Below are positions 172 to 13,591 of a stretch of 13,591 nt of DNA, piece by piece. Origin of the DNA: a virus; UHGV virus genome UHGV-1770993; one strand, written 5' to 3'. The position numbers and the translations under genes were made by a program. The notes under the pieces are model-generated. The model was given only the letters and a program-made list of their open reading frames with translations. It did not search any database and was not told where the DNA came from. Every line of letters starts with the position of its first letter. The first letter of the stretch is position 1.

Positions 172-214
172 TCACCTTCATGGTGGTCAGTGCGTCCTGC
201 TGATGGCCTAAAAT

Positions 215-300
215 ATACCTACAGGTAAAACAGCTGTCTATACCTGTAGGTAAATAAAATTGATGTAAGAGTTTACCTGCTTGAATTTTCAGGTAATTAA
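215..300 (-). promoter_or_regulatory. OL/PL-like operator-promoter region with repeated TACC-N4-GGTA repressor sites
   Basis: Palindromic TACCTACAGGTA at 216-227 and TACCTGTAGGTA at 241-252, plus a TTACCTG...CAGGTAA element at 273-297; same motif family as the sites between the repressor and cro. Confidence 0.6.
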
Positions 301-311
301 TTTTTTGGATT

Positions 312-339
312 GATATAAAAAAGCCCGCTTTGCGGGCTG
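312..339 (-). terminator. Rho-independent terminator ending the leftward repressor operon
   Basis: Minus strand reads AGCCCGCAAAGCGGGCTTTTTTATATCA: GC-rich 7-bp stem with 3-nt loop followed by a T-run, just after the stop of the 350-664 gene. Confidence 0.65.
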
Positions 340-349
340 AAAGGAGATG

Positions 350-664
350 TCAGAAGCTATTTGGATTGCTTGGCCATTGCGGCAATTTTGATTCTACTGG
401 GGTGTGTTTGGGTTTGAGTCCGTTTAAGTAGTCAAGACGCTCAATGGCGCATTTATACATAGCAATCTGCTCTGATGACATGTCGTCGTATGACATGCCT
501 TTGAACTTTTTAATTATCGATTCTGCCTCATGTATAAGATGCTTCTTCTTCATGAGTTCAGCTGTATGCTTAGAGCTTACAGGAGATAACTTTGCCCATA
601 TGAAGCAGATGATTACAACAGCGACTACTATGCCGGGTATAAACACTTGCTGCTTTATCCTCAA
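350..664 (-). CDS. Small membrane-anchored protein (104 aa) in the rexAB position downstream of the repressor; function unknown
   Basis: ORF with N-terminal hydrophobic segment VFIPGIVVAVVIICFIWAKL; TTG start overlaps the cI stop (TTGA) with AGGA about 12 nt upstream; followed by the terminator. Confidence 0.55.
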   Translation of the reverse strand: MRIKQQVFIPGIVVAVVIICFIWAKLSPVSSKHTAELMKKKHLIHEAESIIKKFKGMSYDDMSSEQIAMYKCAIERLDYLNGLKPKHTPVESKLPQWPSNPNSF

Positions 665-1347
665 ACTTTTGGCAGATCGTCCTGGTCTACGTACCTGGTG
701 TGTTTCACAATAGCTGAAACAAAATGCATTTTATCAACTTCTTCAACAGGAAGAGTGATTGGGCGGTGATCACTGTTTATGCTACTAAACTGATAATCAC
801 CGTCTCTTGTTTTGTTCATGATCTTTATCATGTTGTGACCGTCTTTGGTCCTTACAAAGACTTCATCACCTGGATGTACTGGCGTATTTGGTTCAATAAC
901 AACATATTCTCCTGACTGAATCCTTGGCCACATGCTGTCACCCTTAACCTTCAGACCGTAAGCATCTTTATCGCCGCTGTAGATGCTTAACCAACCGGAT
1001 CTGAATTCAATCATATCCACTGAGCCATCAACTCCCAAAACGGCTTCACCAATTACCGGAACAAAACCCGCACGAACGTTACCCGCAAACTCAAGATGGT
1101 CTGTAGCTCCAGCTTTACCATCTGCAAGCATGTCCATCCATCCGCGTGGGAGATTAAAAGATTTTTCAATTAGTTCCATCATATCGTCAGCAATGCGTTT
1201 TTTTCCGCTTTTTCCTTCCGGATACAGCATTCTGGAAACGTATGATGGTTCCCTTTCTATTCGACGAGCCAACTCTGAGGCCTTTCCATTACAGAATCGG
1301 TCTCTTATCTCTATCAGCCTTAGTCGTCTTTGTTCGTATTTATCCAT
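661..1347 (-). CDS. cI: cI-type prophage repressor, LexA-like (N-terminal HTH, C-terminal S24 peptidase autocleavage domain)
   Basis: 228-aa ORF divergent from cro; C-terminal GDSM serine motif and downstream lysine typical of S24/LexA-like repressors; flanked by operator arrays on both sides. Confidence 0.85.
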   Translation of the reverse strand: MDKYEQRRLRLIEIRDRFCNGKASELARRIEREPSYVSRMLYPEGKSGKKRIADDMMELIEKSFNLPRGWMDMLADGKAGATDHLEFAGNVRAGFVPVIGEAVLGVDGSVDMIEFRSGWLSIYSGDKDAYGLKVKGDSMWPRIQSGEYVVIEPNTPVHPGDEVFVRTKDGHNMIKIMNKTRDGDYQFSSINSDHRPITLPVEEVDKMHFVSAIVKHTRYVDQDDLPKV

Positions 1348-1364
1348 GATTTAATTCTATCTTT

Positions 1365-1425
1365 GATTACCTGCCGGTAAATAACCTATGGGTATTGATT
1401 TGCTTTTTACCTACAGGTAAACTCA
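1365..1425. promoter_or_regulatory. OR-like operator region with divergent PRM/PR promoters
   Basis: Three TACC-N4-GGTA sites: TTACCTGCCGGTAA 1366-1379, AACCTATGGGTA 1382-1393, TACCTACAGGTA 1408-1419, between the divergent repressor and cro starts. Confidence 0.7.
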
Positions 1426-1802: not shown

Positions 1803-2084
1803 ATGGGTACTATTGCAACTAAAAGCAAGAAAGCGGCTCGCATCGAGTCGGCCTTGCTGAACAAACTGGCACTGATGGGGCAGAAGACATTCGCTCGCGC
1901 GATGGGGGTTCCTGAATACCAGGTAAGCCGATGGAAGAATGGTTTCTTCTCGCAGGTAAGCATGATGCTGGCTGTTCTGGAATACGGAATCGAAGACGAT
2001 GAAATGGCTGAATTGACTAAGCGGCTTGCCGATTACCTGACAAAAGAAAAAGCCCCGAAGAACGGCGAATTCTTCGAGGCCTGA
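1803..2084 (+). CDS. cII: CII transcriptional activator homolog
   Basis: Translation ...[14 protein letters not shown]...SRWK...[17 protein letters not shown] closely resembles lambda CII ([14 protein letters not shown]...SRWK...SMLLAVLEWGVVDDDMA, from memory). Confidence 0.9.
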
Positions 2085-7403: not shown

Positions 7404-7588
7404 ACGCCACAATTCAAACGATACCAGAGCTTCTTATCCAGACACGAGGCAATCAGACCGAAGTGGCAAGGATGCTTTCCTGCGCAAGAGGAACAGTGCT
7501 CAAGTACAACCGAGACAGCAAAGGCGAGCGTCACGTAATAGTTAACGGCGTCCTGATGGTCAAACAGGGCAAAAGGGGAAGGCCATGA
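7400..7588 (+). CDS. ninH: NinH-like protein (62 aa)
   Basis: ...TIPELLIQTRGNQTEVARMLSCARGTVLKYNRDSKGERHVIVNGVLMV resembles lambda NinH (...TIPDMLVEAYGNQTEVARRLKCSRGTVRKY..., from memory); its stop overlaps the Q start. Confidence 0.7.
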   Translation: MNATIQTIPELLIQTRGNQTEVARMLSCARGTVLKYNRDSKGERHVIVNGVLMVKQGKRGRP

Positions 7589-8208
7589 GACTCGAAAGCG
7601 CAGCTAAATTTCATTCGCCAAAAAGCCCGATGATGAGCGACTCACCACGGGCTACGGCTTCTGACTCTCTTTCCGGTACTGATGTGATGGCTGCTATGGG
7701 GATGGCGCAATCACAAGCCGGATTCGGAATGGCTGCATTCTGTGGTAAGCACGAACTCAGCCAGAACGACAAACAAAAGGCTATCAACTATCTGATGCAA
7801 TTTGCACACAAGGTATCGGGGAAATACCGTGGCGTTGCAAAGCTTGAAGGAAATACTAAGGCAAAGGTACTGCAAGTGCTCGCAACATTCGCTTATGCGG
7901 ATTATTGCCGTAGTGCCGCGACGCCGGGCGCAAGATGCAGAGATTGCCACGGTACAGGCCGTGCGGTTGATATAGCCAAAACAGAGCAGTGGGGGAGAGT
8001 TGTTGAGAAAGAGTGCGGAAGATGCAAAGGTGTCGGCTATTCAAGAATGCCAGCAAGCGCCGCATATCGCGCTGTAACGATGCTAATCCCAAACCTTACT
8101 CAACCCACCTGGTCACGCACTGTTAAGCCGCTGTATGACGCTCTGGTGGTGCAATGCCACAAAGAAGAGTCAATCGCAGACAACATTTTGAATGCGGTCA
8201 CACGTTAA
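7585..8208 (+). CDS. Q: Late-gene antiterminator Q, lambda type
   Basis: 207-aa translation (MRLESAAKFHSPKSPMMSDSPRATASDSLSG...CRDCHGTGRAVD...) is essentially identical to lambda Q as I remember it; followed by PR'/qut. Confidence 0.92.
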   Translation: MRLESAAKFHSPKSPMMSDSPRATASDSLSGTDVMAAMGMAQSQAGFGMAAFCGKHELSQNDKQKAINYLMQFAHKVSGKYRGVAKLEGNTKAKVLQVLATFAYADYCRSAATPGARCRDCHGTGRAVDIAKTEQWGRVVEKECGRCKGVGYSRMPASAAYRAVTMLIPNLTQPTWSRTVKPLYDALVVQCHKEESIADNILNAVTR

Positions 8209-8482: not shown

Positions 8483-8557
8483 GGGTCAGTCGTATAAAGG
8501 TCATTACGGAAGGCTGTTAACCTTCTTATCGTGGTTCGAGTCCACGCTGTCCCGCCA
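8483..8557 (+). tRNA. tRNA-like gene, anticodon GTT (Asn) by manual folding
   Basis: Cloverleaf by eye: acceptor GGGTCAG/CTGTCCC (6 of 7 pairs), anticodon stem GAAGG/CCTTC with loop CTGTTAA, T-arm CGTGG-TTCGAGT-CCACG, discriminator G and encoded CCA; the D-arm is irregular. Confidence 0.45.
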
Positions 8558-8562
8558 AATAT

Positions 8563-8638
8563 GCTGGTTTAGCTCCAATGGTAGAGCGGTCGCCTTGTAA
8601 GCGAATGGGTAGCGGTTCAAGTCCGTTAACCAGCACCA
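8563..8638 (+). tRNA. tRNA gene, anticodon TGT (Thr) by manual folding, 76 nt with encoded CCA
   Basis: Acceptor GCTGGTT/AACCAGC (7 pairs), D-arm GCTC-CAATGGTA-GAGC, anticodon loop CTTGTAA, T-arm AGCGG-TTCAAGT-CCGTT, discriminator A, CCA. Confidence 0.65.
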
Positions 8639-8880: not shown

Positions 8881-9204
8881 ATGAAGATGCCAGAAAAACA
8901 TGACCTGTTAGCCGCCATTCTCGCGGCAAAGGAACAAGGCATCGGGGCAATCCTTGCGTTTGCAATGGCGTACCTTCGCGGCAGATATAATGGCGGTGCG
9001 TTTACAAAAACAGTAATCGACGCAACGATGTGCGCCATTATCGCCTGGTTCATTCGTGACCTTCTCGACTTCGCCGGACTAAGTAGCAATCTCGCTTATA
9101 TAACGAGCGTGTTCATCGGCTACATCGGTACTGACTCGATTGGTTCGCTTATCAAACGCTTCGCTGCTAAAAAAGCCGGAGTAGAAGATGGTGGAAATCA
9201 ATAA
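8881..9204 (+). CDS. S: Holin/antiholin S (class I holin, dual-start motif MKM)
   Basis: 107-aa translation [41 protein letters not shown]... matches lambda S from memory; dual start codons Met1/Met3 are present. Confidence 0.92.
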
Positions 9205-9664
9205 TCAACGTAAGGCGTTCCTCGATATGCTGGCGTGGTCAGAAGGAACAGATAACGGACGGCAGAAAACCAGAAATCACGGTTATGACGTCATTGTAGG
9301 CGGAGAGCTATTCACTGATTACTCCGATCACCCTCGCAAACTTGTCACGCTAAACCCCAAACTCAAATCAACAGCAGCCGGACGTTACCAGCTTCTTTCC
9401 CGTTGGTGGGATGCCTATCGTAAGCAGCTTGGCCTGAAAGACTTCTCTCCCAAAAGCCAGGACGCTGTTGCGCTGCAGCAGATTAAGGAACGTGGCGCTT
9501 TGCCGATGATTGATCGCGGTGATATCCGTCAGGCTATCGACCGTTGCAGCAACATCTGGGCTTCACTGCCGGGGGCTGGTTATGGTCAGTTCGAGCATAA
9601 GGCTGACAGCCTGATTGCAAAATTCAAAGAGGCTGGCGGAACGGTCAGAGAGATTGAGGTATGA
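9188..9664 (+). CDS. R: Endolysin R (lytic transglycosylase)
   Basis: 158-aa translation [42 protein letters not shown]... is near-identical to lambda R from memory. Confidence 0.92.
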
Positions 9665-10128
9665 GCAGAGTCACCGCGATTATCTCTGCTCTGGTTATCT
9701 GCATCATCGTCTGCCTGTCATGGGCTGTTAATCATTACCGTGATAACGCCATCGCCTACAAAGAACAGCGTGATAAAAAAGTCAGTGAGCTGAAGCAGGC
9801 GGCCGCCACCATTACTGACATGCAGCGACGCCAGCGTGCTGCTGATGCACTCGATGCTAAATACACGAAGGAGTTAGCTGATGCGAAAGCTGAAAATGAT
9901 GCTCTTCGGCGCAAGCTTGATAATGGTGGCAGGGTGCTCGTCAAAGGAAAATGCCCTGTGCCATCCTCAGCCGAAACCTCCGGCGCCTCCGGCATGGGCA
10001 ATGATGCCACCGTCGAACTCTCTCCAGTTGCTGGACGAAACGTTCTCGGTGTCCGGGACGGAATTATCCGCGACCAAACAGCACTGAGAACGCTTCAGGA
10101 ATACATCAGGACGCAATGCCTTCGATGA
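9661..10128 (+). CDS. Rz: Inner-membrane spanin Rz
   Basis: N-terminal [31 protein letters not shown] is identical to lambda Rz from memory; the C-terminal half is diverged but still coiled-coil-like. Confidence 0.85.
9881..10087 (+). CDS. Rz1: Outer-membrane lipoprotein spanin Rz1, embedded in the +1 frame of Rz
   Basis: [21 protein letters not shown]... has a signal peptide with lipobox VAGC and a proline-rich [11 protein letters not shown] segment like lambda Rz1. Confidence 0.75.
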
Positions 10129-13451: not shown

Positions 13452-13591
13452 TGAACCGCCCCGGGAATCCTGGAGACTAAACTTCCTGAGAAAGAGGTAA
13501 ACAGGATGACTAAAAATACTCGTTTTTCCCCTGAAGTCCGTCAACGGGCAGTCCGTATGGTTCTGGAAAGTCAGGGCGAATATGACTCACA
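13452..13591 (+). mobile_element. Left end of an IS3-family insertion sequence (IS629/IS1203-like), reading out of the window
   Basis: TGAACCGCCCCGGGAATCCTGGAGACTAAAC... terminal repeat; exact reverse complement of 1-140; OrfA start at 13506. Confidence 0.8.
13506..13591 (+). CDS. IS3-family transposase OrfA, N-terminal fragment (runs off the window)
   Basis: GGT/AGG ribosome-binding site then ATG 13506; MTKNTRFSPEVRQRAVRMVLESQGEYDSQ. Confidence 0.75.
   Translation, partial: MTKNTRFSPEVRQRAVRMVLESQGEYDS

Follow-up and report, generated by a model that had tools for sequence, protein, structure and literature searches.

Known prophage exclusion genes and an uncharacterised candidate

The genes that a prophage expresses together with its repressor decide which other phages can infect the lysogen, and they are of relevance to phage therapy, to horizontal transfer in E. 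coli, Shigella and Salmonella and to the search for defence systems. In particular, the cI-N interval is a documented hotspot for prophage defence genes sharing the promoter of the repressor, e.g. rexAB and bstA (PMC8585504). In lambda (rexA and rexB) and in Salmonella phage BTP1 (bstA), these genes lie downstream of cI, presumably under the control of its promoter, and end before OL/PL. Both systems cause abortive infection; RexAB is a two-gene system with a membrane component, RexB, that is a reported ion channel, and BstA acts at sites of phage DNA replication rather than at the membrane. P22 SieA is an inner-membrane blocker of DNA injection (PMC10883804) of 162-164 residues, with at least three transmembrane helices and a FxRYPxEAxxFNK motif, and its gene sits in immI near mnt, antisense to the late operon and flanked by gene 16 and the tailspike gene. 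HK97 gp15, a YebO-like protein of 62 residues encoded by a moron, is made by the prophage and stops genomes from entering at the inner membrane; the gene lies in the tail operon, where it has a promoter and a terminator of its own, and chromosomal relatives (YebO) exist.

Exclusion is already established as a concept. The gene dealt with here, orf98, belongs to a family that is uncharacterised and unrelated to known exclusion proteins. Neither Pfam nor PADLOC includes this family and RefSeq leaves it out at this locus, yet it is found in two classic exclusion loci. orf98 is a true accessory gene, or 'moron', within the immunity module of mEp043 type. The distribution of its homologs over two slots, as well as a phage carrying two paralogs, are new observations.

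The immunity region and its surroundings

The window (the whole stretch of 13,591 nt that was analysed, UHGV virus genome UHGV-1770993) is the early-right, late-regulatory, lysis and packaging portion of a lambdoid prophage. Its positions 150-1450, cI included, share 99.3% DNA identity with the immunity region of mEp043 (Table 1). The first-pass annotation had placed the gene of interest directly downstream of a cI-type repressor and ahead of an intrinsic terminator that precedes OL/PL, and both statements hold. The repressor matches PHROG families annotated 'transcriptional repressor' and 'CI-like repressor' in addition to its Pfam domain, and the terminator, which has a 7-bp stem with six GC pairs followed by a T6 run (dG -12.6 kcal/mol, z = -3.9 against shuffles), is followed by operators and the PL-like promoter. 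A 14-bp operator repeat, TACCTNNNGGTAAA at 216-229 and 241-254 in OL, matches 1368-1381 and 1408-1421 in OR, and the operators, PL and CII box are all placed as in lambda. The CII-box pattern has three matches in the window against about one expected by chance.

Table 1. Features of the cI-orf98 region, with positions in the window
Feature	Position	Strand	Basis
OL operators: 216-229, 241-254; further half-sites 273-298	212..298	.	Repeat search
PL-like promoter	240..212	-	Promoter scan
Rho-independent terminator AGCCCGCAAAGCGGGC plus T run, predicted end of the cI-orf98 unit	312..338 (stem 338..322)	-	Terminator scan
orf98 CDS, GTG start 646-644, stop 352-350	350..646	-	ORF list; PHROG 10450
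W91-P92, C-terminal tail	371..376	-	Invariant columns
C-A-I-E-R-L motif, residues 66-71, second cytoplasmic helix (predicted)	434..451	-	C66, A67, L71 invariant; R70 at least 90% (19 sequences)
Transmembrane helix (predicted), residues 2-20	587..643	-	Mean Kyte-Doolittle 2.53 over 19 residues
Six in-frame codons from TTG, probably untranslated	647..664	-	Extension not conserved in the family, impossible in L010
cI-type repressor, 228 aa, S24 autoprotease domain	661..1347	-	Pfam PF00717 (Peptidase_S24), E 1.4e-17
PRM-like promoter TTTACC-16-TAGAAT	1354..1381	-	Promoter scan; putative function
OR operators: TACCTGCCGGTAAA at 1368-1381, TACCTACAGGTAAA at 1408-1421	1368..1421	.	Repeat family D1
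CII box TTGC-N6-TTGC, PRE-like, within the start of cII	1815..1828	-	Motif search; same site annotated in mEp043

This arrangement bears on how orf98 would be expressed. The -10 hexamer of the PRM-like promoter ends 7 nt before the cI ATG (a spacing read from the sequence), which probably makes the cI message leaderless like that of lambda. Since this promoter and the CII box both lie upstream of cI, and a scan of the cI-orf98 junction found neither promoter-like nor terminator-like sites, co-transcription of the two genes is likely. In the lysogen, orf98 would be transcribed with cI from PRM, while during establishment the CII box would drive transcription from PRE through cI and orf98, the transcript presumably ending at the terminator before OL. 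An Rfam scan of the region found no RNA family. The prophage sRNA svsR (PMC12803456), which lies near a cI 3' end, was also considered and set aside: its location is within cI of another prophage, one integrated in icd, and no link to the orf98 locus emerged.

To the right of cI lie cro, cII (Phage_CII, E 4e-30) and genes for replication, which in mEp043 are annotated as O and primase/helicase. These are followed by what we take, from the ORF translations, to be nin-region genes, Q and lambda-type S/R/Rz/Rz1, the ORF at 9661-10128 and the one embedded in it at 9881-10087, which has a lipoprotein-like signal start, presumably being Rz and Rz1. Q (7585-8208) is separated from the lambda-type holin gene (8881-9204) by two tRNA genes, tRNA-Asn(GTT) at 8483-8557 and tRNA-Thr(TGT) at 8563-8638. 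The terminase genes are of the type found in P22-like phages, their region being 100% identical to phage phiv205-1 and ~97% identical to CUS-3.

The window has the look of an assembly contig that ends in IS repeats on both sides. The same IS3-family terminus (TGAACCGCCCCGGGAATCCTGG, orfA start MTKNTRFSPEV...) occupies positions 1-150 and 13453-13591 in inverted orientation. The left copy abuts a nutL boxB-like sequence (152-166) and separates PL from N, while the right copy lies some 19 codons past the ATG (13397) of the portal gene, which it interrupts. None of 5,426 complete E. coli genomes contains the left junction. These interruptions imply that the prophage is defective, yet cI-orf98 has been kept intact.

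A 98-codon gene under purifying selection

The reading frame had first been described as encoding 104 residues from a TTG start that overlaps the cI stop. That ORF (350..664, minus strand) does exist and the TTGA overlap is present at 664-661, but the TTG is probably not the start, and 104 residues is probably the wrong length, because several lines of evidence converge on a conserved GTG/ATG start downstream. PHROG 10450 aligns to residues 7-104 only of the longer version; the corresponding gene in GenBank (mEp043_049) starts at the same, seventh, codon; the consensus of 13 alleles has ATG where the window has GTG; and the homologs all begin with M-[YFW]-I-[PS]. In the L010 homolog (42% identical), an in-frame stop two codons upstream of the ATG rules out an N-terminal extension. 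A Shine-Dalgarno motif (GAGGA, 662-658) lies 11 nt upstream of the GTG and overlaps the cI stop (TGA, 663-661). The product is thus most likely a protein of 98 residues encoded at 646..350 and beginning with MFIP (MFIPGIVVAVVIICFIWAKL), which would be translated from its own GAGGA/GTG signals 14 nt past the cI stop.

The possibility that orf98 is no gene, merely a chance reading frame in the 3' untranslated region of cI, deserves consideration. The locus is matched by 52 complete E. coli genomes, every match covering the ORF together with the 3' end of cI. For the 30 of these genomes that were listed, RefSeq/PGAP has no CDS at orf98, only the S24 peptidase being annotated. In three genomes inspected in detail (L003, L004 and L005), the cI-N interval is without annotated CDS, whereas GenBank records of mEp043 do annotate orf98. 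Furthermore, an exhaustive HMMER search of 1.84 billion representative proteins retrieved only 10 matches at E <= 1e-3. However, homologs at 30-49% identity retain the length, helix, motifs and start of the protein, the start codon switches between GTG and ATG, and the P22-type copies described below have a strong Shine-Dalgarno motif, AAGGAGG. In 34/34 copies the ORF is free of stops and frameshifts, and synonymous changes are in excess: pairwise pN/pS is 0.08-0.17 (0.12-0.13 for the adjacent cI), and the 10 synonymous and 10 nonsynonymous changes segregating among the 13 alleles of these 34 copies give a site-normalised ratio of 0.25 (0.11 for cI). A chance frame is therefore very improbable indeed and close to refuted; orf98 is a coding gene under purifying selection. 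The antisense ORF at 444..713 (plus strand) was rejected as a gene, with four synonymous and six nonsynonymous differences and a pN/pS of ~0.4, against 0.08-0.17 for orf98.

A small phage family with one membrane helix

The first-pass annotation recognised no family for the protein. The searches matched nothing of known function and assign it to PHROG 10450, a profile of unknown function to which residues 1-98 align over positions 1-98 of 98 (E 3.5e-55). 19/19 aligned homologs match it as well; PHROG 10450 is orf98's own family, a very small one of enterobacterial phages that is devoid of functional annotation. A word-indexed search with the single sequence reached only near-identical copies, the exhaustive HMMER search being needed to find the family, and a profile search yielded 26 family clusters at 90% identity. 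Two long matches of the HMMER search (P0007 and P0011) were discarded as probably spurious because only short stretches of these ~1,300-residue proteins match. Members have 97-114 residues, 27-49% identity and one N-terminal helix, and the 19-sequence alignment has six invariant residues, M56, C66, A67, L71, W91 and P92.

Other profile and structure searches all returned without an informative match. Scans of Pfam and NCBIfam gave nothing above noise; no family among the PADLOC-DB v2 defence models matched at E <= 1; a profile search of PDB sequences retrieved only designed helical filaments (E > 1); and fold searches with the orf98 models found only generic helical hairpins. A literature search with mEp043, the locus tags and the PHROG identifier found neither functional work on the family nor mention of it.

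The single N-terminal transmembrane helix claimed at the outset is borne out by one markedly hydrophobic segment (Table 1), which is helical in both AF2 models. Its likely orientation can be read from the charges around it. orf98 has no K/R before the helix and four in the next 15 residues, and full-length members of the family likewise have none before it (bar one member whose annotation extends the N-terminus) and usually 2-6 (range 1-6) after it. Under the positive-inside rule, the topology predicted from this pattern is N-out/C-in, which would place the conserved domain, predicted to be a small helical hairpin, on the cytoplasmic side and close to the membrane. The choice of start codon matters here: the 104-residue form (MRIKQQ...) would predict the opposite topology, dropping the TTG extension having removed two N-terminal positive charges. 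The same charge distribution is at odds with an i-spanin (Rz-like) identity, a candidate that was rejected because the domain is predicted to be cytoplasmic instead of periplasmic and because orf98 lies in the immunity region, not in the lysis cassette.

Two slots, both associated with exclusion

Homologs of orf98 occupy only two places, either after this type of cI or beside the ejection-protein gene 16. Loci were retrieved with two subgroup alignments, since the alignment of the whole family has no sufficiently conserved stretch. The first slot, immediately after this cI type, accounts for 31/31 IMG/VR loci and for L010, L011 and L014, and it is also the one found in the three inspected E. 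coli genomes among the 52 matches; its carriers comprise the lambda-like siphophage mEp043 and P22-like podophages, the prophage of the window included. The positional argument originally made from the rex slot thus not only holds but is stronger than first claimed, the gene being fixed behind this cI type in every locus examined and a second exclusion slot coming in addition. That second slot is found in P22-like prophages (25/25 IMG/VR loci, as well as phage N7, L007, L009 and L012), where the gene runs antisense to the late operon and converges on the 3' end of gene 16. Frequently it comes last behind mnt; in some cases it is the sole gene between gene 16 and that of the tailspike. P22 has sieA at this position. 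In the family loci, tblastn with P22 SieA found no SieA homolog, no chromosomal (non-prophage) copy of the family was found among the ~70 loci examined, and a simple scan for a sigma-70 consensus upstream of a stand-alone P22-type copy found none.

Both paralogs are present on one 38.1-kb P22-like contig (IMGVR_UViG_2563366933_000009; L015 and L041), where one follows cI and the other adjoins gene 16. They are ~37% identical, and their coexistence suggests that their roles are not redundant.

This distribution also bears on the idea that orf98 serves the phage's own life cycle at the membrane, influencing the lysis-lysogeny decision or induction (through FtsH/HflKC as CIII does, or through proteolysis as RexB does) or protecting the induced cell. 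Expression from PRE and PRM together with cI, as predicted above, would fit such a role, and so would the tight bond between the gene and one cI type. The gene 16-tailspike paralogs, however, lie far from immC, some of them (L018, L027, L031 and L039) without mnt, arc or ant nearby, an observation that sits badly with a function bound to any one repressor circuit. Of the functional readings weighed here, this is the most improbable.

Several features of these loci can be noted in their own right. The mnt-led string of P22-like loci (L009, 2196-2886; L006, i.e. phage N7, 3008-3848), in which the family gene is often last, also encodes two uncharacterised proteins that may be its functional partners: a Cys-rich, zinc-ribbon-like protein of 115-121 residues and a coiled-coil protein of 110-169 residues with a hydrophobic, likely transmembrane segment (C-terminal in L009, central in N7). 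Across L015-L039, the subtype of the family gene tracks the allele of the adjacent gene 16: copies 98-100% identical to that of N7 are found beside 99-100% (in one case 91%) identical N7-type gp16, copies at 65-66% beside gp16 at 85-87%, and a 49% copy beside a gp16 closer to that of P22. This could reflect simple linkage or co-adaptation with the ejection protein. Finally, the cI-orf98 module of L059 (IMGVR_UViG_2513237219_000004) has a single-base indel and only a partial match to the cI protein (~residues 46-228), suggesting that the repressor is frameshifted; the orf98 copy of this module gives a full-length tblastn match at 97% identity.

Divergence faster than that of the repressor

The family diverges much faster than the gene it follows. 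Protein identity is 41-49% where the adjacent cI proteins are 84-88% identical, and DNA identity drops from ~78% in cI to ~50% inside orf98 before returning to ~75% in OL. Such divergence could stem from diversifying pressure or allele replacement, or else from weaker constraint. With a pN/pS about twice that of cI for orf98, relaxed constraint rather than an arms race could lie behind it.

Divergence is also pertinent to the view that orf98, like the small regulators AcrZ, MgrB or SgrT, acts on an inner-membrane protein of the host (transporter, protease or sensor) and would alter the physiology or fitness of the lysogen, any effect on phages being indirect or absent. The size of the protein and its single N-terminal helix are typical of such regulators, both slots are lysogen-expressed, and morons are known to have diverse non-defence roles (PMC3594210). 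Nevertheless, the confinement of the family to prophage immunity and sieA slots, none of the ~70 loci being chromosomal, is difficult to reconcile with this view, and rapid diversification relative to cI would be unexpected in the partner of a conserved host protein. A host regulator is consequently an unlikely reading, if one that has to be taken seriously.

A possible role in superinfection exclusion

For a small inner-membrane family that is restricted to the cI-N and SieA slots, the simplest reading is a lysogen-expressed exclusion or defence factor. In the model that we favour, the orf98 product would insert in the inner membrane by its single N-terminal helix with a minimal periplasmic N-terminus, exposing on the cytoplasmic face a helical hairpin of ~75 residues and a conserved aromatic Trp-Pro tail. 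From there, acting at the inner membrane, it would hinder incoming phages in delivering their genomes. That orf98 excludes superinfecting phages by blocking DNA entry in this way is a tentative proposal, which we hold at somewhat less than an even chance. HK97 gp15 and P22 SieA, two unrelated small inner-membrane proteins, fulfil such a role and provide precedents, gp15 also for the architecture. Slot occupancy is guilt by association, these slots also holding genes with other functions (mnt and nun), and it is less obvious how a domain predicted to be cytoplasmic would block a conduit in the periplasm or membrane.

The resemblance to SieA lies in location rather than in sequence. Both are inner-membrane proteins of prophages (in the case of orf98, by prediction), paralogs of orf98 fill the sieA slot, and the most conserved motif of SieA is also predicted to be cytoplasmic (PMC10883804). 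However, orf98 has one hydrophobic segment in 98 residues where a SieA-like protein would have at least three helices in ~160-200, its motifs are CAIERL and WP, and comparison with SieA (P22 type A) gave an hhalign probability of 0.7%, the FxRYPxEAxxFNK motif being absent from the alignment. Moreover, whereas the paralogous subgroup lies between gene 16 and gene 9 in 25/25 cases, the window copy is found after cI, in immC and not in immI. With gp15, it is the architecture alone that is similar, both proteins being small, with a single N-terminal helix that no positive charge precedes and a charged helix thereafter. hhalign gave a probability of 0.5% for homology to gp15/YebO, and orf98 differs from gp15 in its length and genomic setting as well as in having no chromosomal relatives among the loci examined.

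Sharing its interval with rexAB and bstA, orf98 might alternatively be a single-component abortive-infection effector, whose hairpin would sense a phage product, whereupon the protein would oligomerise and depolarise the membrane (an outcome similar to that of RexB), killing the infected cell. A membrane anchor and a conserved domain predicted to be cytoplasmic would suit such a function. One short helix, however, makes for a minimal pore former, and there is no homology to RexB or to any Abi model of PADLOC. What is found between cI and the terminator is a single gene for a small one-helix protein, which shares with the two-gene RexAB system its position alone; BstA, for its part, acts away from the membrane. 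In addition, the paralogs take the place of sieA, and SieA acts by blocking entry and not by abortive infection. An abortive-infection effector is for these reasons improbable.

The exclusion model can be extended to both slots. In this more speculative form, which is rather doubtful as a whole, orf98 would found a new family of single-pass inner-membrane exclusion proteins recruited to both lysogenic units of lambdoid phages (PRM-cI of immC and the sieA/mnt slot of immI), replacing SieA in P22-like phages that have ejection proteins of the N7/CUS-3 type and blocking delivery from the cytoplasmic face, with paralogs that differ in their target range. Differing target ranges would, if real, explain both the presence of two copies in one phage and an evolution several times faster than that of the repressor.

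If orf98 does exclude phages, it would represent a third, unrelated way of blocking DNA entry at the inner membrane, beside SieA and gp15, and its natural pairs of paralogs and rapidly evolving alleles would help to map what proteins of this kind recognise. Should there be no phage phenotype, it would be one more small membrane protein of prophages. The rex position itself has other unexplored occupants, since the cI-N interval of HK97 (L071, 18910-19814) encodes two uncharacterised proteins, gp49 (88 residues) and gp48 (216 residues, with a hydrophobic helix near its C-terminus).
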